From Botryllus schlosseri (lineage: Eukaryota), in assembly GCA_051294905.1 (NCBI GenBank), contig CM119375.1:19530001-19594000 (forward strand): a DNA stretch of 64,000 bases, read 5' to 3'. The notes under the pieces were generated by a model. The model was not told the DNA's origin. It made no database searches and saw only the letters and a program-made list of their open reading frames with translations. The first letter of the stretch is position 1; each line of letters opens with the position of its first letter. Both the position numbers and the translations under genes were made by a program. Shown piece by piece: positions 24,540-49,407 of this stretch.

Positions 24540-24878
24540 TAGGGCTGAGCACAATGATTCGAGTACTCGAATCTGAATCGAGTATTATTTTTAATGATTC
24601 GAGTCGAGTAGTAAAAGACCATTTTTTCGACTACTGAAATTATACGCTCTGAGCAACTGAAAGTTAATTTACTAACGAAAATTATAGTTTTGGTACTATT
24701 TTCCGCTGATGAAGCCTTGAAACATTGATTAGCTGTGCCGCAGCATACGACATATAGTACAGAGCTACGAACGTTACAGGAAATAACACATTTCCGAAGT
24801 CATGATCATCCCACAATATTGTCAAAAAGTGCAATGAAATTGGAATGGTCGAAAAAATACTAAAGTATCTTTGGTACT
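24540..24878 (-). mobile_element. MITE family A copy truncated by the giant retroelement insertion
   Basis: Reverse complement of ~340 bp of the 8672-9185 copy; homology stops at gtatctttggtact|tgtga; ~170 bp missing. Confidence 0.85.
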
Positions 24879-25083
24879 TGTGAAATAAGTGCCCGGAGGT
24901 CTAGGCGGCAATAGTTGTTGCACCATAAAATGGGTGTGTAGGAGGATAGTAAGTGTTTTGCATGTACATTGAAATGAGGGTGAAAAAATCGTTAGGTCTG
25001 ATAAGGAACAAGTGAAAAAAATAACCCTGTCATAGGAATAACACGGGATTAAAATAGGAGAGAGTCAGTACACAAAAAACGCC

Positions 25084-25097
25084 AAGAAAAAGGGGGG
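25084..25097 (+). other. Candidate polypurine tract
   Basis: aagaaaaagggggg followed by TT then TG (25100), resembling a retroviral PPT-NN-TG junction. Confidence 0.4.
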
Positions 25098-25184
25098 TTT
25101 GATCCGCTAAAGACGATGGGGAGTTGATCGACACCACATGTCGTATTATTTACTTGCGCAGATACGCGGAAAAGAACATACAAT

Positions 25185-26111
25185 GTGTTGAGTTTGGTCG
25201 AATCGGGTGCATTGCTAAACACACGGGATTGTGTGAAATTTCTGAGAAATCACGGGTTGTTGGTGCGAAGGATGAAATGCAAGCGATGTAAAAAAATAAT
25301 GAAAGAGGAAATTACGTCAACAGGCGATGATGGATTTAGGTGGCGATGCAACCCCTGTGACACTACGGCGACTATACGGAAACACTCGATATTCGCGGGA
25401 AGCAAGGTAGAACTTCCCAAATTATTAATATTGTTCTACTTTTGGTCCCATGACGCGTTGCAAACCCAAATTTCGCATGAAGCTGAGATTAGCCCACGTT
25501 CAACGGTTACCTGGTGCGGCAAATTGCGAAAGCTTTGTACGGCCGAATTTCACAGGAACAAGCGACGTTTGGGAAAGGAAGGCGGTTGCGTAATTATTGA
25601 TGAAACGCACTTAGCCAAGCGCCGGGCTGCCTCTGGTAAAGGACCAGCTGTTAAAGCCATTTGGGGGTTTGGAGGAATAGACAAAGCCACCGGAGAAATG
25701 TTCATTGAAATAACTTCTGACAGAACTGCTGAAGTATTTCGAAAACTCATAGTAGAAAATGTGACAGAGGGGTCCACAATTCTAACCGATGCTTATCCTT
25801 CCTACAAGGGCATAGAGAGCTGGGGGAAGGGTTATATACACGGCGTAGTGGACCACTCCCGATGGTTTAAAGATCCCCGGACAGCTTTTTGTACTAATGA
25901 AATCGAGGGGGCCTGGGGACAGCTTAAATATCACTTACATAGGTCTCGTGGTTTAGCACGTCACCTTTTAGCCGATTACGTAGGGGAGTTTTTGTGGAAA
26001 CGTCAACATCAAAAGACTGACCGATTCTTGGCACTCCTGCGCACCATACACAATGATCCACGGTATAATTTTGACAAATTTGATGGGTCTCCTGTATTAC
26101 CACATTTGTAA
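25185..26111 (+). CDS. Merlin/IS1595 (ISXO2-like) DDE transposase #1
   Basis: CxxC..CxxC Zn ribbon, IIDET / LTDAYPSY / NEIEGAW catalytic triad; no in-frame ATG at the 5' end, splice acceptor at 25160-61. Confidence 0.9.
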   Translation: MLSLVESGALLNTRDCVKFLRNHGLLVRRMKCKRCKKIMKEEITSTGDDGFRWRCNPCDTTATIRKHSIFAGSKVELPKLLILFYFWSHDALQTQISHEAEISPRSTVTWCGKLRKLCTAEFHRNKRRLGKEGGCVIIDETHLAKRRAASGKGPAVKAIWGFGGIDKATGEMFIEITSDRTAEVFRKLIVENVTEGSTILTDAYPSYKGIESWGKGYIHGVVDHSRWFKDPRTAFCTNEIEGAWGQLKYHLHRSRGLARHLLADYVGEFLWKRQHQKTDRFLALLRTIHNDPRYNFDKFDGSPVLPHL

Positions 26112-26240: not shown

Positions 26241-28757
26241 ATGGACATCCTTCCTTATTCTCTGTCTATCCTTGTTGGTATCATTTGTACGTCTGATTTG
26301 GTGCTGCATACGGCGGCGAAAGGCATGCACGGACTTGCAGATCCTGTAACAAGCAGGGCACGGTCTTTCACTCAGGGGACGCTAGGGGAACTACGGGGAC
26401 CCCTGCCTGAAGAATGGATCACTCTAAATGATACACAATGGGAGGACTATCACTTGATGAGCATTTTCAACAAAACGGCGGAGCGACATGTATATAGACG
26501 GCCTGAACTATTTTACAGCAAGTCATTTGGTTACGTAGTAGCTGAGCGTTTTTCATTACAACAAATGGCGTTTCCACATGGAAGATATTGGACAAGTGTA
26601 CAAGATTTTGAACGCACCTGTCTCTGTCAACGGCGCCTGGGCCAAATCACGCCCAATATTTCCTATGATGTTCTTAAACAAACAAACATGTTCATACGTC
26701 CAATAGGGTATTATAGGATTCGCTGGTTCTGGAGTGGGGACTATTACTGGTATCATGACCTTGGCAGAAATTACTCCATGTTTGCTCTAACCAAATTTAA
26801 ATTGATTATGATACGACTATTCGAAAGTTATTCAGCTGTTGAAGCCTCATGTCTTCAAGAGCCAATGAGAGACGGGGACAAAGAAAAATTAAGTGAATTA
26901 AATAAGTATAATGCCAGTAGCAATAGTTTTACACAATGCTGGCATCTAGTGGATAAAGATTATGCCTCCCATAGTGTTTTTTGGCAACAATACCACTCTT
27001 GGAGGGTAAAAGGGGTCAGAAAAGGAATCTGTACCAGGTGTAATTTTAGAGGAGTGATTTCTGCTCTGGAACCAAATAAGGCAGATATAATCATCCAAGA
27101 AATAGTAATGACTACAATAAGTACATGGCCGTATATGCGCGATAAGTTCATTCCATGCCGGGCCCAGGGGGGATGGATTAATCAGTACTGGTTTGAGCAC
27201 TTCTGGCCTGATGGTGGTGTAATAGCCCATTCGTGCAATTTCTGGCCAGGAATGAATACCACTATATGGGGTGATCTACCAACGACAAATTTTCCTCCCA
27301 GAGTAAAATGGATACAACCGTCTTTTCCAAATTTGGATCACAGTGTGTATGCTAATCGTGGCAATCAGGGCATGAGGTGGAATAACCTTTTTGATGGTGC
27401 GCCGACTAGGTTTAAGGCGTCTACATCAACATGGGTACCTTTTCCCAGGCCTATGTGGAAATTCTTCCCCTCTCTTACTGCATCGGATGAAGCATGTAAA
27501 AATAGAATATCACATAACCAGGATTTGTGCCGCGACCCTGTAGGAGGACGCATTTTGAAGGCAGCCTTTTGGGACCATGTTCATTTTGATCCGGAGCTAA
27601 ACCGACCACGCTTCCCAGGGGGACCAATAGAAATTAAAGGTGAATTGGTATCAAGTAATACCGCCCCACGGGGTACGCGTAGAAGGCGTAAAAGGTTCCT
27701 GTCAGGACTGATATGTCTCGTTTTTGCTGCGATATCAGCGATCGCCGTCGTTGCGACAGTTTCATCCCAGTTACATGAAGAAACATTGGATCTTAGCCGA
27801 CAAATCAATAATAGAATGATACAAGCCACGCAGAGGTCCACTGCACTAGGGAGAAAGATTAACGAACTCTCTCTTCTGCAAATAGCCCAACAACAGAAAC
27901 TGGATCAAACGATCGCTACCATGGAAATGAGGACAACGTTAACAAATAAACGACTTGTACTAATGGAAAAGTACATAGAAAGAAACCGACAAATGATAGT
28001 ACGACAAGCCACAGCATCCCTGACCTCTTTTCAAAACTATAAGGAAATGAGCGAAGCTGAACTGGCCCTTGATCGATTGGTTTTGGACGAGTTGGCTAAT
28101 TTAACTGGCAAGTTAATATTCGACTCCAGCAAAGTATATCTCACAAAAATCCGACAAGGAACGCTGCGGATAAAAGAACACGCTCAGCAATTAATAGCCT
28201 ATAGAGACGCTTACATCAATGAGACGAATGACATTGGGGTAGAGCTACGTGCTAACCGAATCAGTCTAGATCAAGCCCAACAGAGTGTGGATTTGGGTTT
28301 ACAAGTTTGGAGAAAAGATCTAAATAAGAGTGTGTACATGAATATTTCTGATTGGCGATATGAGAATATTACAATTAAGCCTTTCGAATTTGTTGGAGGA
28401 GAAGAATTTATGAATAACTTGGGCCAAACGATAGAAGACATGACACACGGTGTAGGAAGCTTGATAAAATCAGTAGGAGATAGCACAGGAGATCTTCTAC
28501 AAGATGGATTAGGTGCGGTCGGAGGAATATTCAATAAGGGAGTGAGCGGAATTTTTTCCGGCCTGGGGTCTGTTCTAATTCCAGTAATTTTGATATTGGG
28601 GGCCGGGATCGTCTTGTTTTGTGGCTGTCGTTATAGCAGTCTTTGCTGTCCTAAGTTAAAAACTGAGGTACAACGGCGAAACACGAATACTCAGTTGACA
28701 ATGCACATATCATCGGTATCGACCCCCGTTAAAACAGCCAAATCGACAAGAATGTAG
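26241..28757 (+). CDS. env: Class I fusion envelope glycoprotein (Env1), 838 aa from ATG 26241
   Basis: Signal peptide; RRRRKR furin site (27678-27695) followed by hydrophobic FLSGLICLVFAAISAIAVVA; heptad-rich region; Gly-rich membrane-proximal segment; C-terminal TM; several NxS/T sites. Confidence 0.88.
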   Translation: MDILPYSLSILVGIICTSDLVLHTAAKGMHGLADPVTSRARSFTQGTLGELRGPLPEEWITLNDTQWEDYHLMSIFNKTAERHVYRRPELFYSKSFGYVVAERFSLQQMAFPHGRYWTSVQDFERTCLCQRRLGQITPNISYDVLKQTNMFIRPIGYYRIRWFWSGDYYWYHDLGRNYSMFALTKFKLIMIRLFESYSAVEASCLQEPMRDGDKEKLSELNKYNASSNSFTQCWHLVDKDYASHSVFWQQYHSWRVKGVRKGICTRCNFRGVISALEPNKADIIIQEIVMTTISTWPYMRDKFIPCRAQGGWINQYWFEHFWPDGGVIAHSCNFWPGMNTTIWGDLPTTNFPPRVKWIQPSFPNLDHSVYANRGNQGMRWNNLFDGAPTRFKASTSTWVPFPRPMWKFFPSLTASDEACKNRISHNQDLCRDPVGGRILKAAFWDHVHFDPELNRPRFPGGPIEIKGELVSSNTAPRGTRRRRKRFLSGLICLVFAAISAIAVVATVSSQLHEETLDLSRQINNRMIQATQRSTALGRKINELSLLQIAQQQKLDQTIATMEMRTTLTNKRLVLMEKYIERNRQMIVRQATASLTSFQNYKEMSEAELALDRLVLDELANLTGKLIFDSSKVYLTKIRQGTLRIKEHAQQLIAYRDAYINETNDIGVELRANRISLDQAQQSVDLGLQVWRKDLNKSVYMNISDWRYENITIKPFEFVGGEEFMNNLGQTIEDMTHGVGSLIKSVGDSTGDLLQDGLGAVGGIFNKGVSGIFSGLGSVLIPVILILGAGIVLFCGCRYSSLCCPKLKTEVQRRNTNTQLTMHISSVSTPVKTAKSTRM

Positions 28758-28844: not shown

Positions 28845-31800
28845 ATGAATCGTTACCTTAAATTATGGATTGTGCTGGCAGTAGCCTTAACACTACACCG
28901 AGGATATCTTCAAACTCATGGCCAATTATTGCCCCTGTCTGCTATGAGTGTGAGGTTAACATTTAATCTTACAGGATGGACAACGTTCCGGTATCAAGGT
29001 CTCAGATACATCCGCCTTAATCGACTATTCAAATTGAACGAGAGTTGGCCAATAGGTGAAACGGAAAATAATTTTCCAATATACAAAGAGACGCCCAAAT
29101 TTGGTCCAACACGAGCTAGCCAAGATCAATTGTACAAGTTATTTGCACCCTCGGGGTCTGACAAGAGGTATTGGAACAATGTTAGACAATACGAAAGAGA
29201 GTGCGGGTGCAATCGGAAACTATCAAGAATATCTCCCGATATTACTTTGGCAGCCTTTACCAGAACCACAACATATCGTCGAAAGAATAACTTTGGCTTA
29301 GTACATACATGGAAGTATGTGGTAGGAAGGGAAGAACATGGCACTATGGCTGTGCCAGGTCCGATCCTTCGGATGATATCTCCTAATGCTACTCCACAAG
29401 TTACTATACATCAACTGTTGACGGTGTACAAGTTATCAGTGATGAATATCTTGGCACAATATGCAACAGTGACAGCAAGGTGTCAGCAGCGTTTCGAAGA
29501 AATCGCGGGATGGAGAGTCAATAAAGGCGAATTTAACGTATGTGTGCACGGAGAAGACAACCAGATGCAATGCATAGGATGCTCATTTTATACAGAGGAT
29601 CTGGCAGTAAATATACTGTCCAGAGACTTTGTGGTCATGGAAATAGATAATAGCATAAGAGGATTAGGGACGAGAATGCAAGAAACTTATTCCTACAGTC
29701 AATGGCCAGTGGGAGTCAAATTACCCAGATTACATCACGACATCGTGTGGTTGAAGGCTCGAAATGAGACGGGCCCCAGGGAGAGGCCAGCAAACTTTGA
29801 TGGTCATACTTGGTTTAGATTGAGGATTTACGCCCTCCGCGAACATCTGAATAATGATACTCAACGGATAATGGGGAAGAGAAATTTTCCGACTATGTTG
29901 CAAGGCAGCATAGAATGTGAACGTAAAAAAAATCAAAAGGTTTGTCGAAATTCAATAGGAAGTTTAAAGACGGCATTGGCCTTTAAGGAAGTGTTATATG
30001 ATCCATATACAAATCAACCCGTGTATGCAGATCATAGCAATGGTCGGTTACGAATTGCATCTCCAAAACCTGCAGGTCAGGAATCTCCCCTCAAAGCATG
30101 GCCTAAGAGTCTACCCAAGTGTAAACAACCCGGTAGATTAGGCGACTTTATCCTGACTGCATCATTTAAAAGCAATGGGCAAAATACAAGGAATATGGAC
30201 TATTATCTAGCTCGCCTAGGAATGTATTACGTAGAAGCAACAAAACGGCGGTTACGCCAGTTATCTTTGCCCATATATAAAATGCGGAGAAAACTGGGGA
30301 GATTGGACAGGTCCATAACTGGTGAAGAGATGGAGTCTCTAAGTCAGGCGCTACGGTCAGCCTTGACACCTCAGAAACTGAGTAGGATAAATGAAGAATT
30401 ACTGAGCTATATGTCAACACGCAAGCTCATAGAGGTGCAGTTTCATGATATCCGGATATTCCGACCAAGTGTGGCCTACACAGCCACAATATGTGCTGGA
30501 ATATTGGTGTATACGCCTTATGCCTATAAGGACAATAACAAAATCAGAACTAACTCTGAAATGTCATTAAGTACCGCGGAATCAATAACGACAAAGGCTG
30601 TAAATTATGAAGGAACCACTCGAAAAGTACCTTCTAGCTCCGTAATGCCACGAAGTAACGCGGAAGCAATAACGACAAGGACTGTAAGTTACGAAGGAAT
30701 CACTCGAGAAGTGCCTCCTAGTAGCGAGACTGGTATATGGGTTGATATCAATTCTGTTGTAGCGACTCCAGAACCCGCTGTGACACGGGAAAAAACCATA
30801 ACAATTACTGAGGAAAATGTAAGAATGACGAATCAATACGACACTAACCACTATAACTACGATTATATAGAAGGTTACGACGAAGGAATTAGCTATGCCG
30901 GTTATGACGATAATACTAGTTTTCAAGACGCTGGAAATTACTACTACGATTATTATGACAAAGACGGAGAATATAATGTTTTATTAAAACATAGGCCCAT
31001 ACAGATAGCTTATACTACGGATTCTACAAATATTATTGAAACTACAATGGCATTACCAATGATTGAAACTCCAACATCAATTAAAAATACTCAATATACG
31101 ACTGAGTTAACAACAGATACGACAATTTCCACGTCAAAAACGTCTGCACATACGTCAGATAGTATTACGACCACTTTATCCACTGCTGCAATCACACCAT
31201 ATACTGGAGGGTTGACATCGGCTATTGCTATTTCCGAAACGACTTCATCGACATCGCTCCCAGCCATATTGACTACTGTGCATTCCTCACGCGAAGATAA
31301 CACCGGCCCAAGACCAACTACATCTATTATTACATTCTTAACTACGGTGAAAACTGTTCGTGAGCAAGAAAGACGCAGGACGAGTCCCACTGATATTTTC
31401 ACAACTGTGGAACCATCTATGGCTATATCAACAGAGATGGACACTCAGAAAAGCATTGGTATTGCTACGACAGGAGTCACCTTTTCTGAAAGTGGGTTAA
31501 CAACACGTGTACCAATGGCGAGAAGTGTAAAAGCAAGGTTACAATGGAATACCATGACCTATCAAATACCCTCAAAAAATGGTGAAATGTTAGGCTCCTT
31601 ATCCGTGCCAATAAGGAAAACATCCCAAATTACGCAGATACCTGAGTCTTACATACAATTAAGTCATCACGCAAATCAAATCAAGGACACGACACCGCCA
31701 AGAGCGCATTTCAATATGTTGTTTGATACATCACAAGTAGCAACGACAGTTGAAACGCACCAATACTTCGTCACCAGCAAGTCCCGCTCTAATACAGAAC

Positions 31801-32327
31801 CAGATAATTTAAACAAAAAGCAAGATCTACAGGTAAGAACTAAATCAACGTCAATAATTTCATCAGGTGACTATCAGAGCGATCCCACATCAGTAAGTAA
31901 AAATGATGTGATCAGAAGTTGGAAGAGTACTTCCAATAGTGCACTTTCTTCAATTACACCCTCTATCGAAGAAGAAGGAAAAACTACACTCAGTATACCG
32001 CATACCTTACCTACGGCCAGATATGACAGATTGGACCGAATTACATTTGACTTCTATGGACGATTGCACAAACTACACGAAATAGAACAAGGATATGCAT
32101 CAGGTAAAATTATTGTGGATATTAACAATAGAAAGGATTTAGAAGAATCACTTAACAATTATGTCTTGATTTTTGCGGTTAGCGTAACAACAATGGTAGG
32201 ATGTATGTATTTTTGTTATGCGAAATGCGGGAGAGTTGCAGCAAAAAATTATCTTAAAAAGGTTGTTCGGCGGAATAACCAAAAGATGTATATTACAGCA
32301 GTAACATTGCATGAAAAACTGAGATAG
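28845..32327 (+). CDS. Second type I membrane glycoprotein (Env2): Env1-like ectodomain plus Thr/Ser mucin stalk, 1160 aa
   Basis: Signal peptide; motifs shared with the Env1 SU part; ~500-aa T/S-rich region; TM YVLIFAVSVTTMVGCMYFCY; basic tail. Confidence 0.85.
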   Translation: MNRYLKLWIVLAVALTLHRGYLQTHGQLLPLSAMSVRLTFNLTGWTTFRYQGLRYIRLNRLFKLNESWPIGETENNFPIYKETPKFGPTRASQDQLYKLFAPSGSDKRYWNNVRQYERECGCNRKLSRISPDITLAAFTRTTTYRRKNNFGLVHTWKYVVGREEHGTMAVPGPILRMISPNATPQVTIHQLLTVYKLSVMNILAQYATVTARCQQRFEEIAGWRVNKGEFNVCVHGEDNQMQCIGCSFYTEDLAVNILSRDFVVMEIDNSIRGLGTRMQETYSYSQWPVGVKLPRLHHDIVWLKARNETGPRERPANFDGHTWFRLRIYALREHLNNDTQRIMGKRNFPTMLQGSIECERKKNQKVCRNSIGSLKTALAFKEVLYDPYTNQPVYADHSNGRLRIASPKPAGQESPLKAWPKSLPKCKQPGRLGDFILTASFKSNGQNTRNMDYYLARLGMYYVEATKRRLRQLSLPIYKMRRKLGRLDRSITGEEMESLSQALRSALTPQKLSRINEELLSYMSTRKLIEVQFHDIRIFRPSVAYTATICAGILVYTPYAYKDNNKIRTNSEMSLSTAESITTKAVNYEGTTRKVPSSSVMPRSNAEAITTRTVSYEGITREVPPSSETGIWVDINSVVATPEPAVTREKTITITEENVRMTNQYDTNHYNYDYIEGYDEGISYAGYDDNTSFQDAGNYYYDYYDKDGEYNVLLKHRPIQIAYTTDSTNIIETTMALPMIETPTSIKNTQYTTELTTDTTISTSKTSAHTSDSITTTLSTAAITPYTGGLTSAIAISETTSSTSLPAILTTVHSSREDNTGPRPTTSIITFLTTVKTVREQERRRTSPTDIFTTVEPSMAISTEMDTQKSIGIATTGVTFSESGLTTRVPMARSVKARLQWNTMTYQIPSKNGEMLGSLSVPIRKTSQITQIPESYIQLSHHANQIKDTTPPRAHFNMLFDTSQVATTVETHQYFVTSKSRSNTEPDNLNKKQDLQVRTKSTSIISSGDYQSDPTSVSKNDVIRSWKSTSNSALSSITPSIEEEGKTTLSIPHTLPTARYDRLDRITFDFYGRLHKLHEIEQGYASGKIIVDINNRKDLEESLNNYVLIFAVSVTTMVGCMYFCYAKCGRVAAKNYLKKVVRRNNQKMYITAVTLHEKLR

Positions 32328-32631
32328 ATATTGTGAAAATAATTACTGAATTATTGTAAAGGCAGAAGTTAGGGTTGTTATGTGTTGTGTTGTGTTCGGC
32401 CCGTTTTCACGGATTAGAGTCCATGTGAAATTAACTATTAACCTAAATTTAACTCCGTTGAAATAACATAGTTTAAAAAAATCATGCTGTATTTGTTTAT
32501 GGAAGCCTAAAATTGTACGGAATTTGAGAATGTACGAGGCAAATTTGCGGTATTAACGATGATTATACAATGACTATTATTGCGAAATACATAATTGCGA
32601 AATTTTCGGATGGTATTGCTAAGCCAAATCG

Positions 32632-32766
32632 GGATTAAGTAATGCAGTAGTGAGTAAATATGGAAGCGTTAAAAATGGAAGGATTAAGTAATGCAGTAGT
32701 AAGTAAATATGGAAGCATTAAAAATGGAAGGATTAAGTAATGTAGTAGTAAGTAAATATGGAAGCA
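32632..32766. repeat. 49-bp tandem repeat, ~2.7 copies
   Basis: ggattaagtaatgcagtagt(g/a)agtaaatatggaagc(g/a)ttaaaaatggaa starting at 32632, 32681, 32730. Confidence 0.95.
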
Positions 32767-35700
32767 GGATGGCGTAATTTTTGTACATGTTGCGATGGCA
32801 TATTGACGAACAAGAAAATTTAATTTAGTAGAAACGGCAAAATACGACCCCAATTGAGGGGTTGATCACGCCATTGCAAAACTCTTGCACAATAAGGCCA
32901 CAACTAATGGTGGGAAAGGAAGCGCTACAGTGGGTAATTGACGAACAGGAAATATTTAACTGCAGCAAAATGGTGAAATTTGTCTGTAATGGGGGGCTTA
33001 ATCATGCCGGAGTACAAAGGATAGCGACAAAAATTTGCTTGATGAATGTTCGGAAGGATGCCAAAACCCCACTTTACGAAAATAGCAAATTGCTCGTGGT
33101 GATGGGAGGTGCATGCGCGTTAACGTTCTTCCGCTCAAAACTGGATAAAACGCGGAGCGCAGGAATGGAAAAATCAGTTGACTCCATACCAGACTGTAAG
33201 GTGTTAAGGGAGTTGAGTGCTGGTAGTCAGCTTATCCATATATAGGTTGACACCAGTATTGAGGTGACTCGGGTCGACTTCTTCGAGTGGTTTGACCTGG
33301 AGCGATTCGCTTATAGGGAACGAGTGACTTGGTTTGACTCGGGTCGCATTGAGAGTCGATTGACTTGGACTTGACTCGAGTCAGAATGTGTGTTAACTGG
33401 TAATGACTGGGGTATCGAAGGTCGTGCTTTTGTTCCAGCACTAGTTGACACTCAACAAGTTTTGGTATGTCAAGATAATAGACCTGAATATAACTTGGGT
33501 CATCACGTTACAGACTGCCAATCTAATATTGCCGCGTGGAAACTGTATCAGTTATACCAAATGTTACTAAAAGTAGAAGAACTAATGCTCACCTTTCCAT
33601 AAAGGGGAGAGAGAAAATCAACGTGGTACTTATAGCTATGATATGAGACTTATATTATAATCACTCGCTACATTGATATTCTTACTATACAAAATAAATT
33701 CTAAACACTCGGTACTAATTCAATATAAACGCTGGGGTCCAACGGTTAGAATGATTAGGATTGCATGGGATAGCATGACATACGGGTATAGGCGTAAAGT
33801 ATACTACGAAATAGAATCACGACACGCCAAGATAATCCCTGTTAAGGACGTTTGAAAATACAATCATTTGAAGTAAATAATGATAGTAGATCTGGAATTT
33901 TAAGGTTTATAGTATCAGCCTGCTGTCGACGCGTTTTGATACTGTAGTTGTTCTTTACATAACTTAAATATAACAGTATTGGGTAACATAAGCGCCAATT
34001 TATGAGATTGCAAGGTGGCGGCCACCTCGTACAAAATGCTCAAACGCTAAAGTGATTTGTAATTAGTAATTAGTAATCAGGCGAATCGATGCGACCTCGT
34101 TAGAGACGTCTTCGATTTCGATACGCGCGTGTGCCAGGCGCGTAACCACGGGGATTTTGGGGTCGAACTTGCCTATTTGAAACGCGAAACCCCGTCATTT
34201 TGAAATGATCATTGGAAATCTAATATTTAGCTACAATTCAATAATTGTGTAATCAGTGTTCCGCGCGGCGGGTTTGCGAGAAACGAGTTGTCAATTAGCG
34301 AGAGGAAGCTGTGATTATCTCCCGCTGAGATGGTCGCGAAATTAGGTCATTCATTCCTGTGCGCGTGGAAAACTTCGCAAGCCTGATTTATCGCGTCTAG
34401 ATAAAGCCTGGTTTCGCAGGCCTAACAATCACATCTGCAATGGGCCCAGTTCACACTATATCATCGTTTGACTGCGCAATCACATATGCATTGGCGGCTT
34501 CGGCCTGGTGTGCACGATTTCATCGCTGACTCACACAATAGCATCTGCAATAGGCCTGGAGTGAAAGATTATTGCTGGCCTATGGCCTGACTATAGCGTC
34601 TCGAGCCTAACATGCTTCGGCTCCTATCTCTCGCGGGTCTGGCGACAATGCGGTCGGGTGTACGCTAATTAGTGATGGTATTATCTCATATTGCTTAAAA
34701 GGTGACATCGCGAAACTGAATAACATTGAATGATTCGAATGGAGGCAAACATTAACATGAGAAATTGATATCCACTAATATTGGAGCGTAATGATCAAAA
34801 GATGTGTGTCAGTACCATGTCTCGAGTTCTGGAATACGGCAAAGGTTTGAAATCCATCAAGTTAGGACATTCCCCGAATTTTTCCACTGACTACGCACCC
34901 AGCGTGGGCTGAGAAGCACCATCCTAGATCTCCTCTCCCGACCAGGAGCGCTAATATACGTTATGCTTTTCTGAAATCTAAATTATGTGCGCCCATATTC
35001 GTTTACAAAACTAGCTACTAGATACATTCGTACTTCGAAATTGTTGCACAAAGTCCTTTTTTGAGTGTTCCTTTCATTATTAACGTGATGCAGCACAGGA
35101 TTATTGGTCATAGTAGCACAAATTCTGATATTATTCGATTCGTTCGAACAGGGAACCTTCTACATTCCGATAAAATTGATTGCTGGATGAACTCGTTTCC
35201 AGAACAATATTATCGAATATTTACCCATTAGAGATTAAATAGACAATGGATTTCTATTGGTAAGATCGCGACATGCGGCTGGGAGTGGAATCAATCCTAG
35301 CCCAGGGGTGGCTAACACGCGACCGTAGAAAGAGATTTGTGCGGCCGTCAACACGTAGTTCAATTGGTATGCGTTGGCGGCCAACCCGGCCATCGACACG
35401 CAGATGGAATTTGCGAATTGACCGATGTACTCCCGAAATGCCTCGTGAACTTAAATTGGGAAATGCACCAATGTTTTAATCATCAAACAATTGCCGTGAT
35501 GCGAGTAGGTCAAAACGATGCAGAGACAATGACTGATTGCACGGCTGCGCGATTTCGCGTTTGTAATCGTCATTATTGTCAGCTGGAAGTATTATAGCGT
35601 TGTCGTGTGTTGCCTGCCAAGCCATGCGTAGTGTATTTCGTTACTCACACGGGGCATTGCGCGTGAACAGCGTTGATGTAACTGGAGATTCGTCGGACGG

Positions 35701-38700
35701 ACTGGTAGCGCAGGCCGCGGTTACACTTCAAATGATCGCACCGTTTTGAGATTCCATTTAATAACTCGACTGCATGGTTTGATATTAATGAGTGCAGAGC
35801 CGATATTAAAACGTCACGCGAATGGTTCAACTCTGCACGTACACCAGCGGTATGCAGTAAATTGTGGTTTCATATGACGAATGCAGCAATTATGACGTTA
35901 CAAGAATTCGCCGCCTCGTAAAAAAATAAAAGTTGGAGTCTATGTTGGGTAGTATGAGTAACTGCTGTAAAAAGTGGTAATTTCAATCAGCAATAGCACA
36001 ATCACCAACCTATTAAGTATCAGAGCTGCCTCACATTATGTACTGTGCACTGCGCAGGGTTGACAATAGCAGTTAGACTACAAGAAATGCCGATTATCTT
36101 TGTATTGGGCGCTACTGTGCATGAGTCCATGGTCTCTCGAGTCATTGGCCTTGAGCAACTGGATAATATCTGAGTTGATTCGGCATACCTGTTTATGAAT
36201 TGAATTTAATTCGGAGTAAAATTAGTGAGCCAATTTCAAGTCATCAAATAATCAAATGCAGACAAAGATTGTGGTATATAGCATATGTTTGGATTTTTCA
36301 CGCAAAGTTTATGGGATACATAAAAAGCGACCAATCTTTCAATGATAATGCATTTTATTGGGCATCCATCTGACATGTCACAAATATACTGGTCGCGGGT
36401 TAAGAAGTCGAAGTTTGCAGCCAATGCCATCATAAGCTATAAGTGTTTTATTTATTTTTGGCGGATATGATAAATTAAGAACGGTGCGTTTGCTTAAATG
36501 ACTTAAGTTACTTGTATGCAAGCAATACAGCGTATTATTTGTGGACTTATTTAACTCAATATATCTTCATCGGTTAGATACCGATGACCGCCCGATATGT
36601 ATTGCAGAAGACTAGTAAAGTATAATGATATAATCACGTCTTGTGACTAATAAAATCAATTCAATTCCAACCTTAGCTTGATTTGAGTCACTTTCACTAA
36701 TCAGTTGACTTGACTCGGCTTGATCGAAGGATGCGGTGACTCGAAGTGACTCATGACTCGAATGTTGCAGTGCTGGGATCGAGACGCGACCGATCGGTAT
36801 TTTGAATCAAAAAGTTTTTTTGATTTCTAAAATGGAAAGTGTTTCGACCCGGGCCGGCTGAGTCGCTCCAATTGTTGCATTCACTACATTGTGGCATTTA
36901 TTTACGTCAAGCAGGGAATACCGCTTCAGGAAATCTGATCTATCGCATAAATGGCTAACTTAAAACATGTCTTCCAACTGTAGGTACTTTATAACAACTA
37001 ACTAGACCAGTAAGTTGAGTTTACGACGAAAATAAATAAATCGCGATATTGTGACTAGGCGGAGTACAGTATTATATATGAGACAACATTATACATATAC
37101 CTACCTCGGTGATAACGGATTGTAGGTTTGGGGTGATCCCATTCTGGTACATCCATATGTATATTCCATGGGAAAGGTACGCGCTTTGCAACCTCTGGTA
37201 TATCTCAAGAATTACATATATCCCGGTTGAGGGACACTAACCTACAAGTTCCAGAAATTAACTGTACTTATACACACAACTGGCCTCACCGATCCAAACT
37301 TAAACCATGTGGCAAAGCAATCCAACAAGCGTTAGCCGCAACGAAGACGAGTAGCATGGATAGCTTCCTGTACTGTCAAAATTATATTAAGCTACGAGCC
37401 GTATAATACTGAATAATAACAATTCTACTCAAGACGCAAAGTGATTGATTTCCTTCAAAGCTTTTAAGCTACTGAGGCTAAAATATTGGAATTGTTCTCG
37501 AAGTTTTCTTAGGAAAAGTATTGCTGATATGGACATGGTAACTAAAATTGTGTGACAGGAGCCATCCCAATTAATGGTTCCTTCTAGAATACCTGACAGG
37601 ATGGAACGTTATTTGGGGTGATTCTAGTCATGCGCATTCGTATATATGAATAATAAGGGAATATAACAAAATCGAGGTTAGTTCGAGTCATGGTACATTC
37701 TCATTGACACAATAATGACCTGTATACTGAACATTATCTTTTTTTGTAACTAGGGCTAGCTCAAACGCTGATTATAAGAACTCGGCGACCTTATATAAGA
37801 ATTTAAAAATAACTGCGACGAGAATGATGAGATTGAAGTTGGTATTAATATTATTGTTTCTAATTTCAAAACAACCTATCCGCACATTCTCGACAATACT
37901 ATTTAGTACTTGACAATTCTGACATTAGATTTAATTTGCAAAACGCGCAAGTTCATCTTGGTGTATAAGCTTTAAGAAGTATCGTTGGCCGCTGTATACA
38001 GTCTATTGTCGTCTCAAATGCATAGGTGATACTGAATTAAAAAATAGATAGTCTGAACAAAACCGATCAATTTCGATATGAAAGCTAGTTTAATCTTTCG
38101 CGCACCCCTTTTGGTACTGCGGTTCTAATTTACTATGACTGATACATTGCGTATTACTAATGTAAGGAAAGAAACAGTGTTGGGAGGACTCGAGTCGATT
38201 GGAAAATATGTATTGACTCGTGTCTCGAAGAGGAATTTATAAGTTAATATCAAGTCACAAAATAAACGGTGTCAAATAAATCACTGTAGCTTGCGTATAC
38301 TCGAATTGTTGTGTTAAGTCATAAATGAATTAACCGCAAATGAAACGATCATGGCTGACGCTGCCGTGGTAATTATAGAGGACTATTGTGAATAACAACA
38401 TTTTTCTGTCTCATTAGACGACTCAATATTTACGTTGTGCAGGGCGTATCTTTCTATATTTTGGTTGACAATGCCTGACTGTAGTATTTAGCCTTACAAT
38501 TACTCACGTATTCTACTTGCGCGTGACTGATACAGTATCTGGGTGCATGTATAGTTATTTGCATATTTGACAGCTAATTCAATATAGATGCTGAAATCCG
38601 GTTGAATTGAATTGAACCCAACATGGGTGCAAGGTATTGTCTCAAAAAGGCCTGTGCTGAAGTAGTATGTTCCTCAAAAATTAATAATATTTTTGAAAAC

Positions 38701-41700
38701 CAAACAAAACCGTTGGTTTATCGCCGACGAGTAAATAAACAGGTGAAATATCTATCTCAATCGAAGGGTATAAAGTATCACACTAAGGTAACATAATACC
38801 ACGTTGCTCGCTCTCCTATGTTCTAGCTCACGCTGAACCATAAACCTACATTTGCGAAAGCTGGTCTTCAGTTCATTGTATTACGGATTTGGTACATCCC
38901 TGTAAATACCGTTCGAAGGTTACCATATATTGCAAGTTTTGATATATCTCATATTAAGCAGTAACTCCGTTTGAAGAATTCTGGTCTATAATTTCAAAAC
39001 TAAATTGTGCTTTTGCGGACAACTCAGGTCATCCTAGCTAAAATCTGATGCAACTATACGACGCCAAGCATGCAATGGAGCAATGCCTAGCCGTATTGAG
39101 TGACTTCCTGAAATGGACTAACTCCCATTGCAGTGTGAGGCGAATATTATTGATTACTAACAATTGTGTACGTCATAACACAAAAGGGCTATAAAATTGT
39201 AAATCTACTGTAAGCCATGACAAACTTCGGCTTTGATAGATCGCACTGTTTTCAAATCCTTCTTGCGTACTGGATTACTAAAACAGGAAAAAATGTGCTT
39301 GCTCGTGCCCTATTGGAAATGTCCATTTCAAAACTAGTGTGTTGGAGATCTCTACAATATCTCTTCTACTACTAGTGTGTTCTAAGTGTTTGGACATGAT
39401 TAAAATTCACTAGAAATTGTCGTGCGGGTATGGTAATTTGGGTAATGATAGCTGCCTCCGCCAACCGGTCTCTCCAAAATATTTGAAACGATGGAACAAT
39501 TGCTTGAGGCAGTTATAGGATTTTTTGCGCTAGTCACCTTGTGATTAAATTAATCTAGGAGCACTAAGCTGAAATAGATGAGAATGTTATTTTCTCATAT
39601 CACGCCTCAAATGTCAGGAAGTTACAAGTAAGTGAAATTAAGAGCAAGGTATCGGGTTTGCGCCAGTAATAGTGGTGGGCAAACTAATTAGGTAGTCTTA
39701 AAAATAAATGTAAATTTGGCCAGATTTAAAAATACCCAAGCGAGTAGGTAGATTACAAAACATTACTACGAGAAACTTGGGTAGTGATAGATGTTTGTTT
39801 TCGATAATAGCCATTAGCATGTATGTAGCACAGGTATTTTATTTAAAAGTAACTATTGTTGCGAGTCGGCATTTACAAAAGTAAGTTTTGCGTATTGGAG
39901 ACGGCGCATGAATTGTAGATAATTCAGCAGCGTAAACGCTAGTTTGTTAGTGTTGAGCAGTAATGCGAAGTTTGTAGTATCAAAGAACAAACAAAAGATA
40001 TGATAATTAAGGAAAGCCATTGATTTCTGAGGGTAGCAAGATTTGCATTTTGGGATTATAGTTTGCAGAAGTAATTATTTGGGACAGATTGGGTGCGAAA
40101 AGATAGTTTATTGATAATGTATCAACAATAGTGACCTAGTAATCTAGAGTACAATTACATAACAATATACAGTGGTGTAGTATGAAGCAGCGCGTGTTGG
40201 TTTTTGCATTTTCTATGAATAAGGCTGAGAATGGTCGGTGGGACCTTGCTAATTTGAGTGACTACAGGATAATTTGAATTGTTGCATTTGGCAGCAAGAC
40301 TATGCGAATTGGGAAATAAGTTTACAAATTAAAGTAAGTAAAGGAGTGATATTGAATTAGTGGATTGTAGGCGCCACCACGCGGCTGGTTTGAGCCAAGC
40401 AAGAATGAATGTAATCAAAATGGCGTAAAATCGTGCTTGGAAAATGGCGCATGACCTGCTACCACTTAATTTATGTCACTTTTAGCCTTGATATCAAGGT
40501 TGGTAAATGAATGAGCGCTTAAGGTAATATCCAAGTTAGATTGAATCAGTAAACGTGAGAGAAATTGTGGTACAGCCCGTAGCTTTTTACGCAGTGCTCA
40601 TGTTGGCAATGGACCAAGAACAAGAATTGTTGATGTATGAATGACGTAACTCATTGATTAGAAGATTCAGACAGCTAAATATCTAGAATTATACAGTAAC
40701 TAATTAGCTAAGTAGTAAGCGCATATCTAGTTAGTACTTTCTTGATTTGCGTGCCACACAGAGGATCACGAACCAAAAATTAGGCCTGATTTTTAGAATT
40801 TTTCGCGTTAACAATGATCAAACATGTCCATCTGAATCTGATTATGATTTATTACGCAAATTCGGAATTGATAACAAAAAAAGAATGGCATGCCCCATGC
40901 ACTGAGGCTATATCTCATATACCGGCGGTTCATGATTATAAGGAAGTAAACCGAGTTTAGAATGTAGGTTGATGACTTGGTATCTGAAGGAGGCATGAGT
41001 TATAGTTTCATTAAGGGTGTATTAGAGATGGAATACAGGCCATACGACAATTAAAATAACATAGTCATACTCCATGTATGTATTTAAGAAAATTAGAGTT
41101 GGGGTAAGATAGCACGAACTTGGTGATGAAGTGTTGGACATAGTAATAACGGTACTGAATGAGGGCTATGAACTGAGCAATAAAGGCATAGATCCCTATA
41201 ATTTGATATTAACACCGAAAGATAGGTGCGTTAGGTAAGCGATGACCCGTCACAAAGATCTGGTATTTAATGGCCAATTGGTACAATTGTTTGACAATAA
41301 AAGAACTTGTAATAGATCAGAAGGTCGCAGCTTGGTATTTCGCTAACCAAGCAAGTATGGTTATGAAAACCATTGGCATTCTGTTAGTTACATCTTTGGT
41401 CGCTAAATCATGTTATTAGGGCCACTTAAAGGTACCGAGTACTGTAGTGGTACGCTCCAACGATGTAACAGCAATAGGACGTCCGGCGTTCCCACATTTC
41501 AATCACTAGGACACATTCATTAATATATTTATATTATATTTATATTTTTTTTCTGCTCCTATATTTGAAGATATTTGGCCATGAGATTAATAGCCTACTT
41601 CTCAAAAGTATACCCGAATCGTGATTGGAATTACAATGATCAGATCAGACTCTGTTATCGGTCTGTTGGATCCAAAATATTCATAGTAGCTGAAAATTAT

Positions 41701-42433
41701 AATGTAATGGCTTTTATGATGGCATCATACGTTTGTCCGCTCATATGGTGTCTATATCTTATAGTTAATTTATGTCAAGTACAACAACAATTCTATTCAA
41801 ATAGTTATAAATATGATGATTCTTTTCGTGCCAGGCCTAAATTTATACAAATCTAAATCATATTTTGGCGATGTGTGGTTACTGTCAGTCTGTTGGATCG
41901 ACTCACTCTCAATAGAAAAATTCATTCCCGCCAAATAAGGCCTACTTGGAAAGACATAGAATACCCCTATAAATGCTGCGGCCCGCGGCGTCGTCCCAAC
42001 TAGGAGAATGGCCCGCAAGCACGTTTGAGTTTGAGACCCCTGTGCTAGATGAAGAAACAGGACACAAAATTGGTACAATCACCTACAATTTTAATTCACC
42101 TGATTATAATTGATAGAAGGTTCTCACTTTGAGCGAGGCCTTATATAAAATACGGATAATGTAGCAGTAAAGATGAACATCGAGATTGATTTAGGATAAT
42201 GGATATCATGGTTATATCCTAGTGTGGCGCATGTAAAAAAAGGGTGATGAATCAAAATAAGACGAATAGCATGATCACTGCGTATTGTGGTGTGAACTCG
42301 CTAAGAAAAAAGAAAGATTCCTGTGGCATTCTTGGAAAATTTATGACACATAGACCTATTACATTTCCACAGACTTGGTATATATAGGGTCAAAAAAACA
42401 GCAATACATCTCTTTGCTGGTATAACTGTAGCC

Positions 42434-42955
42434 ATGACAAGTTCTGATGCCATGGAAGCCTCTGTTCTGGATGAACAAATCTGGACTGGAAGGTGGATTG
42501 TTGTATTAAAAAATATAGATGAAATTCTCAAATCATGCCAAACATCGCCTGAAGCAGATGAAAATGAGGAAAATGAACAAGAAATTGACGAGGCCACTTT
42601 GGAAAGCTATTTTGAAAGAAACCCTTCGATCTGGGGAGATGATACGGACTCGGAATTAGATCTCACTGACTCAGATGAAAGTTCGAGTATTTTGTCTGGC
42701 TCCGGATATGATTCTGGACATGATTGGATAGAGTCCTATCTTTTCCCAGACCACGAGTTGAGAACTTATCCGAATTCCGAATCTAGTGATTTGACAGATT
42801 CGAATGAAAGTTTGAATACTCTACCCGATACTGACTCTGGTGTTAGTAGTAGCGATTCCGATCCATCCTCAGATCATGAACAGTTACGACCTCTTGACGA
42901 GGCAACTCTCAGGCGCCTTGATAGAATGTTTTGGCGCCCCTGGAATAACGAGTAA
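42434..42955 (+). CDS. Acidic Ser/Asp-rich protein with sub-terminal WRPW motif
   Basis: 173-aa ORF; ends RMFWRPWNNE; acceptor tttccacag at 42364-72. Confidence 0.65.
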   Translation: MTSSDAMEASVLDEQIWTGRWIVVLKNIDEILKSCQTSPEADENEENEQEIDEATLESYFERNPSIWGDDTDSELDLTDSDESSSILSGSGYDSGHDWIESYLFPDHELRTYPNSESSDLTDSNESLNTLPDTDSGVSSSDSDPSSDHEQLRPLDEATLRRLDRMFWRPWNNE

Positions 42956-44097
42956 AATTGGAAAACTATGTGATCAAAATGTATAAATTGATGTGATCAG
43001 AAAAATCGTAAATGTACATTAATTACGTTGCGACTGTTACAAGAGATGTTGTGTTTTCTGTGCCTCATAGTGAAACAATTAAATACTGAGGACGACTGTG
43101 TTGTCGTTTGAAAAAGGGAATTTTTGTGTAACCATGGAATAATGACAGGTTATTTGGCAGATGTTAAGAGAGAGAGAACAATTAGGATGGTATGTGATAC
43201 AAAATAAAAGTTTGAATTAGTCAAGGCTGGGCAATCTTTTTCAGCCCGAAGGTCACATTCGATTGACGAAATACTGTGCATGCCACTACCGCGCGAAGCG
43301 CGAAAAGCTTTTGAAGTTCATAGAACAATGATATTATAACTTGGCATTGTTGCGGGCTTACCGTACACCGTTAGGCTGAGTTTACGCGGACCAGGCTATG
43401 TGGCGCATGGCCATAGTAATAACAAAAGCCAACATGCGTCAATCTTTCCGTATCTGGGTTTCATAGTCAGCAATATTACCGCAAACGCAAACGCAAGGTC
43501 ACACATGTTCAACGACACCTTGGTCCGAAATCGCGAGTATAGTTAGGCTCAGTCTGAATAAATTGGCCGTTTTTCCATGGTCATAAGATGGGCAACAGTA
43601 TTAAAAACAAGGAATCGTGTGGCAAAATATTGTGTTTAGCTTGTGAAAATTTTGTTTTTGATGTATCTGGTGCAAATTATTCTGCTTGATGGTAGTGTAT
43701 AAAAATATACCATTATGTGACTGGCTGATGGATCTGCCAATACGTAGGAATAGATATTTTAGTCATCACATCCAAACAAATATAAATTTTGCTCGACCTT
43801 GCAAGTTCCCAATCAGTGCAATCCATTCTAGATATTGGCAATTTCGGAAATTACCTCGGGGGCCACGAATTGGCCGGCCCTGAGTTGAGGAAATCAAGAA
43901 TTGTTAGGCTGACAAATGGCCAAAGATAACACTTTTCTTCACCCGGTAAAGGAATAATTAACCCCAAATAAGATTAATAAAGAGTTAGCACGATTCAGTG
44001 TTTTGAATATCATTAACGATATCTTACAATAATCTCGACTTAAAGAAACATTATTATTTTTAAGGTGTAAAAATAACGCGGTGTCGTAAATTAAAGA

Positions 44098-44616
44098 ATG
44101 TCTGCCTCAATAACTAAAGAACAATTATGGGAGCTATCTATTGAAAATATCGAACTATGGTATGAGGAACTTCGCGGGGTAAAAAAGACAGAAAGATTAC
44201 AACGATGGAATAATTTTTTCGAGGACATTAAAAATGGAACTAGACGTTATGCAGAAATCTTCTTCGAAGGAATGAGAGCGAGTAATGAAAAGGTCAAAGA
44301 ATGGCCATGGCGAAATGACTATCGTAGAAAACACTTGAGAAATCGCAAGGTAGCAAAAGTAAAACCATATTTGCTAATAAAAACTGCCTCAAACAAACAG
44401 AATCGGAATACAGAGATACGAGCAAGCTCTTCGACATCGACAAGTAATACTCCCTTGACGTCCTCTCTGACACCATCTACTACAAACAATGATGCACCGC
44501 CTAATAACAATGTCACGTCAAATGAAACTTATGCATCTTTTGGTAGTATAATGTTTTCGCAACAATCATCCTTTAATCAGCCTCAACCTACAACATCGCA
44601 TCACGTTAACGAATAA
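44098..44616 (+). CDS. Hypothetical protein (charged N-half, S/T/N-rich tail)
   Basis: 172-aa ATG ORF followed by AATAAA. Confidence 0.65.
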   Translation: MSASITKEQLWELSIENIELWYEELRGVKKTERLQRWNNFFEDIKNGTRRYAEIFFEGMRASNEKVKEWPWRNDYRRKHLRNRKVAKVKPYLLIKTASNKQNRNTEIRASSSTSTSNTPLTSSLTPSTTNNDAPPNNNVTSNETYASFGSIMFSQQSSFNQPQPTTSHHVNE

Positions 44617-44776
44617 TGAAAAATATTCAGTGGAATGATGTGAATATTATCAATTATATGGAGTGAATATATGGTGAATAAAAGCTAGTTTATTAACTTG
44701 TGCCTAAAGGATATTATGAATGACGAGGGATTATCTTGTTTTAAGTTGATAAATAGTGAACTAGTTAAAGAAAGAA

Positions 44777-45637
44777 ATGTGCCACGGGCTATTGTGCAAC
44801 CCTAATACGGATCATAAGGTTGTCCACGAGTGGGCGATGCAGTTCGATGTTATACATAGGCAGCAGATGGTAATGGAAATCATAAAAACTGCGCCGGTAC
44901 GGGATCGGTTGATGAGCATCTTGTTCGGCACCTGTGAGCGAGACAATCCAAGGGTACAATATTGGCAACAGTGTATGTACACCAAGGAGGACTGGACAAA
45001 AACAGGAAAGCCTTTTCAACCGGTTGGGAGCGGTGAATGTAAACAATGTTACCTAATGAAGTACGTAAGACCGTATTTCAAGAATACCGGGCAGATTTTG
45101 GACCTTATGACATTGTGCCATGACTATTTAAAAGAAGCTTGTAGTATGCACAAAGGACTAGATCAAAACACCGAAAGAGATAAAGGACATATAGTGCTTT
45201 ATGTGTTATATCCAGAAGCGATAATAACCGCTATAGCTCTCATGTTGCAACAATATCGGGGGGCAAAAAACATACGAACATTTTGTTTTACGAGATGTCG
45301 GATGGATGCAGAATTTGAGTTCCTATTTGGGGGAAATTTTGAACAATGGAGGTTTACATACGGGTCCACGAGCACGTTTGGTTTTGTGGGAGGCGTTTTT
45401 ATTCTACCGATTGACCAAGTGTCGGAATCAACCTTTAAAAGCTCGTTAAAAAAAGAGGGAGACAAACAATTAGTCAAAAACACCAATTCGGAAACTACAT
45501 TGATGTTTGATATTGAATCTTCAACCAGTGGAGACAGTAGGTTTCCAAACAGACCAGAGGCTCCGACCCGAATGGTAGTTTTACGGAGACCCAGTGTAGA
45601 TGGATCACATGCTGCCTCTAGTGGTAATATGGGCTGA
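44777..45637 (+). CDS. Hypothetical protein, family X (paralog of 48832-49338)
   Basis: 286 aa; MCHGLLC, NPRVQYWQQ, LYVLYPEAII. Confidence 0.75.
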   Translation: MCHGLLCNPNTDHKVVHEWAMQFDVIHRQQMVMEIIKTAPVRDRLMSILFGTCERDNPRVQYWQQCMYTKEDWTKTGKPFQPVGSGECKQCYLMKYVRPYFKNTGQILDLMTLCHDYLKEACSMHKGLDQNTERDKGHIVLYVLYPEAIITAIALMLQQYRGAKNIRTFCFTRCRMDAEFEFLFGGNFEQWRFTYGSTSTFGFVGGVFILPIDQVSESTFKSSLKKEGDKQLVKNTNSETTLMFDIESSTSGDSRFPNRPEAPTRMVVLRRPSVDGSHAASSGNMG

Positions 45638-46967: not shown

Positions 46968-47591
46968 TTGTCATATCCTGAAAACGGTAAATTGTGCGAA
47001 ATTGCTATTTTGTTTGAAAAAAGAATGCTAGATTTTGATTATATTGAAGGTTACGATTCAACAAATTGGTGTCATTTGTACGATGTATATGACGAGTTGG
47101 ATCTATTGAATCTTAAAGAATATAACAGCGAATATGAGAGATACCAGTTTAAAGAAAAAGTATGGGAATTGCTTACGGACCAAGCCGATTGGGTTAAACA
47201 AACAGACGATGGCCTAGAAGAGGTAGCCCTAGATGAGGAATTAACCGAAGAAATTCTTGATAAATTCAACCATGTGGCAGAAGAGATATTTGAAATAAGA
47301 GCAAAGGAATACACCTCTTTGGGAAGAAGAGTCATGTTGTATGAATTAATTAGAGGACTTGTGATGAAACTTACAAACACTAATATAACAAAGGACGTGT
47401 ACCAGGAGAGAGAAATTTGTAAAGATCCGCCACATATGGAACAATGGAATTGTCAGAATAATTTGGGCCTAAAAGGCTATTCAAGTTCAATACATTGGCG
47501 AACAAAAAGGATAAGACGTATAGAAATACATCCTTACCCCTACGAAGGGGAAAGTGTGAACATTGACTCTATAATACCGGAACAATCATGA
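46968..47591 (+). CDS. Hypothetical protein, family Y (paralog of 50610-51269); start uncertain
   Basis: RVMLYELIRGLVM and WNCQNNLGLKGY; TTG start in track, upstream ATG (46954) is out of frame. Confidence 0.72.
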   Translation: MSYPENGKLCEIAILFEKRMLDFDYIEGYDSTNWCHLYDVYDELDLLNLKEYNSEYERYQFKEKVWELLTDQADWVKQTDDGLEEVALDEELTEEILDKFNHVAEEIFEIRAKEYTSLGRRVMLYELIRGLVMKLTNTNITKDVYQEREICKDPPHMEQWNCQNNLGLKGYSSSIHWRTKRIRRIEIHPYPYEGESVNIDSIIPEQS

Positions 47592-47677
47592 GTAATGACA
47601 ACGACTGTAAATAAGATTTTGACTTACAAAGGACACTTTTTCGAAGGTATAGAGTAACAAAGTGGGTTATCTAATTC

Positions 47678-49338: not shown

Positions 49339-49407
49339 AATTTAACTTTCCAATGTTTGTATATACAGAAAACTACTTTTGAAAAGACAATAAAGTTTTA
49401 AATAAAT

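Follow-up and report, generated by a model that had tools for sequence, protein, structure and literature searches.

A 39.8-kb element in Botryllus schlosseri appears to combine reverse transcription with insertion by a Merlin/IS1595-like transposase

Introduction

Class I and class II mobile elements are defined by reverse transcription and by the action of a transposase, respectively. Several reverse-transcribing systems differ from the retroviral plan. Caulimoviridae prime reverse transcription from a tRNA, lack an integrase, form a circular product and carry a short terminal redundancy in their RNA, while DIRS and Ngaro elements encode a reverse transcriptase (RT) with RNase H and have replaced integrase by a tyrosine recombinase that acts on a circular intermediate. 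The strand-transfer junctions of reverse transcription are error-prone.

Merlin transposons are recognized by GG ends, target site duplications (TSDs) of 8-9 bp, a DDE_Tnp_IS1595 domain and TIRs that are sometimes very imperfect (PMC8101967). ISApl4, a member of the IS1595 family, makes circles that are detectable by inverse PCR (PMC12561309). Teratorn, a 180-kb fusion of piggyBac with an alloherpesvirus DNA virus, carries its virus-like genome within TIRs, is inserted by a DNA transposase at TTAA targets and has been proposed to excise before replication (PMC5601938). Env-bearing Ty3/gypsy elements combine gag-pol and a Ty3-type RNase H with an env-like gene (PMC13524379), and the Burro elements exceed 30 kb and carry BIR and ubiquitin-related cargo (PMC6431247); both have LTRs and an integrase.

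Here we describe an element found in a 64,000-nt stretch of the Botryllus schlosseri genome (the window; contig CM119375.1, positions 19,530,001 to 19,594,000) and compare it with these systems.

Results

Termini and target site

The element spans 39.8 kb, from a GG at 24873 to a CC 636 bases past the window, where its right terminus ...CTAGTTCC ends at L001:635 (window-equivalent 64635) and is followed by GTATCTTT (Table 1). It interrupts a host repeat, MITE A, whose reference copy lies at 8672-9185 (514 bp, 8-bp TSD gttattat). A first-pass annotation of the window had rightly described an inverted MITE A copy, starting at 24540, as split by an insertion. It had set the break at 24878 and had begun the element at the TG of 24879, read as an integrase-processed end. 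The actual break falls after 24872 (MITE nucleotide 332), GGTACT (24873-24878) is element sequence that opens all 27 insertions examined, and the ends are of the Merlin type (GG...CC, imperfect TIR, 8-bp TSD). In 11 of 12 fetched copies the flanks are unrelated before 24873 and the sequences identical from GGTACTTGTG onwards, so the TG lies six bases inside the element; the twelfth copy was placed likewise in the survey of paired insertions. A search of the host's own genome with 24870-25500 returned at least 41 matches, most of which begin at query base 1-4.

The predicted remainder of the MITE is present past the right end (L001:636-825, window-equivalent 64636-64825), and MITE sequence restarts after the right-end TSD at the exact base of its interruption. 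The missing piece, put at ~170 bp, measures ~182 bp after the TSD. It ends in gaccagccctg followed by gaggtgag, which matches the forecast outer TSD gccttgag at only 5 of 8 positions. The short TSD tact or gtact that had been anticipated next to the element is instead the 8-bp GTATCTTT.

Table 1. Features of the element and its insertion site. Positions are those of the window; L001 coordinates lie past its right edge.
Feature	Position	Strand	Remarks
Host MITE copy, left 332 bp	24540..24872	-	Inverted relative to 8672-9185
8-bp target site GTATCTTT	24865..24872	+	Exact repeat after right end, L001:636-643
Left terminus, GG-starting imperfect TIR	24873..24895	+	17/23 matches to right end L001:613-635
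Purine tract	25084..25097	+	Internal to the element; putative plus-strand primer
Transposase 1	25272..26111	+	ISXO2/IS1595-like (PF12762), DDE motifs present, dN/dS 0.10
GP1, env-like glycoprotein	26241..28757	+	Basic cleavage-like site, hydrophobic peptide, long helices, TM
GP2, membrane glycoprotein-like	28845..32327	+	Thr/Ser-rich stalk; N-terminal domain paralogous to GP1
ORF-poor variable 10-kb region	32328..42433	.	Many copies lack parts of it or cannot be aligned there
Accessory gene block	42434..56543	+	Single-ORF genes, all under purifying selection
LRR ORF	47678	+	Pfam; accessory block
Transposase 2	49556-50356	+	39% identical to transposase 1; in accessory block
IAP, 3 BIR + RING	51509	+	Pfam; accessory block
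Ubiquitin E2	54879	+	Pfam; accessory block
Host spliced-leader relic fixed in DNA	57437..57461	+	Inferred 5' end (R start) of genomic RNA
Primer-binding site (PBS), 18 nt	57679..57696	+	Complementary to host tRNA-Ile(AAT); hypervariable 3' edge
Small membrane-protein-like ORF	57728..57997	+	Precedes gag
gag-like ORF	58006..60822	+	CCHC knuckle; Pfam
pol	60753..64000, onward to ~L001:369	+	Protease motif, RT, RNase H, Tpt1/KptA C-terminus

We paired and fetched 27 insertions from at least 41 left-end and at least 40 right-end matches. All 27 have GG...CC termini with imperfect 23-bp TIRs. The termini are nearly invariant and free of switch scars. TSDs are exact and 8 bp long in 23 insertions, 9 bp in one, 8 bp with one mismatch in another and absent from two. 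The 39.8-kb element moves as a whole unit: all 12 full-length copies tested are colinear, with reading frames mostly open, and 16 of the 27 insertions measure 37-41 kb (range 8.0-51.6 kb). The PBS is kept in all six shortened copies examined, and no TIR-only derivative occurs among the matches listed, where paired copies are no shorter than 8 kb. Self-BLAST of the element showed only short local repeats, with no second LTR, no internal copy of the ends, and no split repeats or internal complementary region of the DIRS type. Two of the shortened copies, L022 and L052, have short homologies at their rejoining points, 75 and ~3 nt ahead of the PBS, as could result either from a minus-strand jump made too early or from a deletion during DNA repair. 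Loci L027 and L060 hold two right ends 14 kb apart with a flank in common, a local duplication of the pol end.

Gene content and selection

All 20 ORFs of at least 150 aa inside the element lie on the plus strand, and GC and AT skew is 0.09 inside the element compared with ~0.01 or less outside. The two transposases match PF12762 with E-values of 7e-10 and 2.5e-17, and DDE motifs are found in both. The C-terminus of pol is a Tpt1/KptA domain (E 4e-11) and its protease was recognized as a DTGS motif, with a PF00077 match in the relative P0002; a domain scan found no integrase (rve) in pol. Among 23 ORFs there was no Pfam match to a tyrosine recombinase or a movement protein, and Rfam gave no match within 24800-64000.

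Across 18 copies, dN/dS was below 0.5 in all 23 regions tested, these values being drawn from pooled pairs that are not independent. RT-RNase H is the most constrained region (0.05), followed by the transposases at 0.10 and 0.13, with the other 20 regions at 0.10-0.46. Beyond the genes listed in Table 1, the accessory block holds 11 ORFs without an assigned function. Three or four short ORFs at 53330-56543 form one paralogous family and the ORFs at 47025 and 50610 another, neither with a Pfam match.

GP1 could be a class I fusogen, an assignment that we treat as a lead. Atlas leads were class I fusogens at 0.88-0.90 and only one close homologue was found; a single-sequence AlphaFold model (367 aa) reached a pLDDT of 54 and a viral fold search was empty at E<=0.001, so we only infer the identity of GP1 as an env protein. 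The purine tract AAGAAAAAGGGGGG, which had been taken as a retroviral-style primer directly preceding an LTR, is present as described but internal, with no LTR start at 25100. Fifteen of 17 near copies have nothing but purines in this tract, which is lost in the diverged copies L054, L056 and L058.

A variable edge at the primer-binding site

The PBS is preceded by CAAAAT. Its cognate, host tRNA-Ile(AAT), has 63 pattern matches in the genome, with four loci confirmed by ARAGORN. Position 18 of the PBS is A in 21 of 24 copies and C in three, and host tRNA-Ile(AAT) genes carry T or G at the facing base; the two PBS variants thus match two host isodecoders. A tandem array with more than 30 tRNA-Ile pattern matches lies on C12 near 26.0-26.16 Mb.

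At the 3' edge of the PBS, 23 copies show 10 alleles, more than in any other of 870 windows (mean 2.8). This edge is discordant in 78 of 91 close pairs, ranking first of 284 windows (mean 0.16). The window copy and the copies L024 and L025 are ~99% identical around the PBS, yet their PBS edges differ. In the strictest form of the comparison, with only six qualifying pairs, four were discordant, a figure also reached by one of 40 background windows. Plus-strand strong-stop DNA is reported to stop one nucleotide before m1A58 of the primer (PMC8599865), and the variable edge would therefore be the junction of the second strand transfer. Together with the isodecoder match and the leader relic described below, these sequence patterns point to an RNA step.

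A spliced-leader relic upstream of the PBS

A copy of the host spliced leader is fixed in the element 241 nt upstream of the PBS. Its sequence is identical to the published 'Chordata 1' leader (PMC3795323, Table 1), as would suit a tunicate-type host. In RNA the leader was found in 2,950 and 5,283 reads with the template-switch adapter at that point, continuing into unrelated mRNAs. Of 24 aligned copies, 23 have the relic, and the remaining one has a deletion there. The window copy alone is missing the 7 nt that separate the leader from the next AG in the other 22 relic-bearing copies, as would be expected if an RNA had been trans-spliced to the next AG and then reverse-transcribed. Variability at the 5' edge of the leader ranks only 4-5 of 284 windows. 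In dinoflagellates, retrocopies are marked by such leader relics (PMC6050394).

The 24-nt spliced leader has 236 exact copies in the genome, and most of those sampled lie in retroelements. Our sample comprised 15 lone and five paired sites from the list for one chromosome. Thirteen of the lone sites lie ahead of homologues of gag or pol (34-92% identity), and a partial second leader accompanies two of them. Eight of these 13 have a TGGAGGCACC site ~215-257 nt further on; one such site matches host tRNA-Thr(AGT) perfectly over 18 nt. A diverged subfamily retains the leader-PBS layout with a tRNA-Thr PBS. Three of the five paired sites are LTRs of a true LTR element and provide a positive control for the order leader, then PBS. 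A small non-coding LTR element (L176-L178; LTRs of 409-410 bp, 99-100% identical) has a leader relic in each LTR, and a PBS-like site follows 175 nt further on. A repeat at L179, L180 and L186 begins with the spliced leader, in many cases preceded by (AAT)n, and may be a retroposon headed by the leader.

In two runs, single-cell 3' reads accumulate in the sense orientation at 57.2-57.4 kb, a short way upstream of the relic. This is as expected for a poly(A) site near the leader, internal priming being an alternative. RNA of gag-pol was barely covered in three raw RNA runs, and none of the runs listed as containing matching sequence is recorded as RNA. Three single-cell reads with two different starts join the leader to 49367, upstream of transposase 2, which suggests trans-spliced accessory mRNAs. 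The motif TTGCATWGAGT occurs at 56013, 56643 and 57398, and TATA-like boxes lie near 56582 and 56820, in the stretch preceding the last genes and the leader relic.

Gene order and linkage on a proposed joined-end circle

When the two ends of the element are joined, its order becomes PBS-gag-pol-[joined ends]-transposase-GP1-GP2-accessory genes-leader. Judged from the predicted genes, this is the order of a complex retrovirus with a transposase in the place of the integrase. Element copies are strongly mosaic. Among 80 cut points tested on the circle, linkage decayed best with distance for a cut at 57373, which adjoins the leader: rho was -0.34 there and -0.15 in the chromosomal order. This optimum is part of a wide plateau at 45-57 kb and held in 17 of 18 jackknife runs. 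Without one recombinant copy it fell to rho -0.19 at 54373, and the support for permutation is therefore modest. A contrast between the gag-pol and left-arm blocks (0.43 versus 0.29) was dropped, as it vanished without one copy.

No head-to-tail junction was found in the assembly with spacers of 0-12 or 0-30 nt, and none is among the joints listed for reads on the 8-kb copy L053. The read test is uninformative for this junction because depth was low and the joint list incomplete, with 224 further joints beyond those listed, on a reference only ~90% like the young copies. An empty-site joint in the same reads was discounted as evidence of polymorphism because the flank is a high-copy repeat.

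Relatives of the pol protein

Related pols include P0001 (50%), P0002 (41%), P0031, P0032, P0034-P0037 and the marine metagenome loci L122 and L123, which lie on 4.7-kb contigs; two scans of viral contigs gave no relative. Nine relatives were scanned, of which seven have a Tpt1 match and none an integrase match. In a FastTree phylogeny of RT-RNase H, the Tpt1-bearing pols form a clade with SH-like support of 99 (seven rows) and 98 (eight rows), and the next branch outside it is an integrase-bearing pol. This tree comprised the 125 rows with enough RT-RNase H coverage from 179 proteins and two translations, the rest being left out, and contained no caulimovirus sequence. The best solved-structure match of pol was 8r0s, 'Enzymatic polyprotein' (121 bits), which we take to be the RT of CaMV; 4ol8 and Ty3 Gag-Pol (~100) and Pr125Pol (70) were weaker. 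The flanks of the relatives are too short or unavailable, and the link between this pol and a Merlin transposase is therefore known in this genome only. P0032 carries an exo/endonuclease-phosphatase piece after Tpt1, and P0058 a dUTPase after RNase H.

Discussion

Comparison with known systems

The element resembles Caulimoviridae in its RT-RNase H without integrase and in its tRNA priming. It differs from them in its animal host and chordate-type leader, its precise, TSD-bounded insertions of the transposase type, its glycoprotein-like genes, the lack of a movement-protein match and a size five times larger. With DIRS and Ngaro it shares an RT-RNase H whose usual integrase has been swapped for another recombinase, but this recombinase is a DDE transposase and is accompanied by 8-bp TSDs and a tRNA PBS.

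Its mode of insertion places it with Merlin/IS1595: we found the DDE_Tnp_IS1595 domain with the DDE triad, 5'-GG ends with short imperfect TIRs, and TSDs of 8-9 bp (24 of 27 exact), all of which are Merlin features (PMC8101967). It is far from compact, with two transposase genes and ~20 further ORFs in 39.8 kb, among them gag-pol, env-like and accessory genes, and it bears signs of passage through RNA. Like Teratorn, it is a virus-like genome within TIRs that a DNA transposase inserts, and excision before replication is proposed for both; in this case the genome has an RT and a PBS and the transposase is of the Merlin type (PMC5601938). We consider it likely that the element inserts like Teratorn and copies itself like a pararetrovirus.

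Of the features of LTR retrotransposons and retroviruses, gag, protease, RT-RNase H and a tRNA PBS are present, whereas two LTRs, TG...CA ends, a 4-6 bp TSD and an integrase are not. The likenesses to env-bearing Ty3/gypsy (gag-pol, Ty3-type RNase H, env-like gene) and to Burro (BIR and ubiquitin-related cargo, size) are set against a pol that belongs to a separate, integrase-less, Tpt1-bearing clade (PMC13524379, PMC6431247). The element is not an LTR element, an ordinary Merlin, a caulimovirus or a DIRS element. In the portions of these two sources available to us, its design is absent from the giant retroelements of PMC6431247 and the env-bearing gypsy elements of PMC13524379, and those portions of PMC13524379 mention neither Merlin nor a transposase. 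The combination of RT and Merlin was not found in the literature searched, which covered neither most subscription journals nor Repbase Reports.

A proposed replication cycle

The account that we consider probable for the observed ends, TSDs, gene set, purifying selection, PBS-tRNA match, leader relic and variable PBS edge is that a circle copied from RNA is inserted by the transposase that this 39.8-kb multicopy Merlin/IS1595-type element itself encodes. The transposase would excise the element or copy it out, and the two ends would join. The circle would then be transcribed from upstream of 57437 and the RNA trans-spliced to the host leader, running once round, from the PBS through gag-pol, the joined ends, the transposase, the glycoproteins and the accessory genes, to a poly(A) site near the relic. 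Reverse transcription primed by tRNA-Ile, with the two usual strand transfers, would yield a circle as in caulimoviruses. Finally, the transposase would cut the joined ends and insert the DNA with an 8-bp duplication. Cutting at that point would leave the retroviral order of genes permuted in the chromosomal copy, much as a prophage is opened at its att site. The element might plausibly be packaged in enveloped particles, although this is hypothetical. At 40 kb, the reverse-transcribed genome would be very large, which counts against this cycle.

We think it unlikely that the element is instead a giant cut-and-paste Merlin that moves as DNA with captured retrovirus-like cargo, its scars stemming from cDNA recombination or from the past of the donor. 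Movement as DNA would account for the fact that every hallmark of insertion is of the Merlin type (PMC8101967), the circle junction was found neither in the assembly nor in the listed read joints, and the mosaicism could reflect gene conversion of DNA. It would not explain why PBS edges differ among copies as similar as the window copy, L024 and L025, why RT-RNase H is more constrained than any other region, or why ORFs share one strand and the skew stops at the element's borders. The retention of the PBS in six of six shortened copies, with no TIR-only derivative in the listed matches, also speaks against it.

Next in rank, and likewise improbable in our view, is reverse transcription without an excised template. 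The transposase would then insert a product assembled by a template switch at the ends, either from a pair of half-genome RNAs (one from the leader to the right end, the other from the left end to R) or from a single read-through RNA of a chromosomal copy. Such a route requires transcription to begin at the left TIR or outside it wherever the element has inserted, and the almost invariant, scar-free termini of the 27 insertions are not what switching would be expected to leave. It makes excision unnecessary, explains the PBS and leader scars equally well, and would produce the high mosaicism through frequent template switching.

The initial reading of an integrase-inserted LTR retroelement with an LTR of 32.6-32.8 kb starting at the TG of 24879 or 25100 is refuted by the right end at L001:635 and has next to no probability left: the TG at 24879-24880, the purine tract with TTTG and the CAAAAT before the PBS all exist, but the element runs from 24873 to a point 6.9 kb past the PBS, has an 8-bp TSD, no second LTR and no integrase in pol, and neither TG begins any listed copy (41 and 40 matches listed). 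On the joined-end circle, the stretch from the purine tract towards the PBS takes the single place of U3-R-U5, and it therefore resembled one giant LTR.

Implications

Under the transposase-inserted circle that we favour, the family appears to combine copying by RT and insertion by a DNA transposase in one cycle. If true, this would be a new life cycle for a retroelement, and would give LTR-type RTs another route to the chromosome beside integrase and tyrosine recombinase. It would also mean that genomes copied by reverse transcription can be as large as 40 kb and carry an anti-apoptosis and ubiquitin toolkit. Screens that demand both LTRs and an integrase would miss such elements, since this one has neither. 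Scars at the PBS edge and of the spliced leader could offer a general means of showing passage through RNA from an assembly alone.

More tentatively, and with rather less confidence than in the cycle itself, we raise the possibility that the element is an enveloped, pararetrovirus-like agent of animals with a 40-kb reverse-transcribed circle. A trans-spliced host leader would cap its genome and serve to express its gene array, and Merlin-type entry would take place at an att-like junction situated where the integrase sits in retroviruses. Such agents would make up a distinct, integrase-less, Tpt1-bearing lineage in several marine hosts.

Other features of the window and its surroundings

Another MITE A copy, at 10423-12628, is split by a 1.84-kb insertion with its outer 8-bp duplication CTTACGGC intact. 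Three host-side ORFs of 167-220 aa lie outside the element at 6807-7310 and 17531-18347. Beyond the right end of the element, L003-L005 (window-equivalent ~88.5-109 kb) repeat the left flank of the window (1.7-18.5 kb) as a long, diverged duplicate with 67-91% identity.
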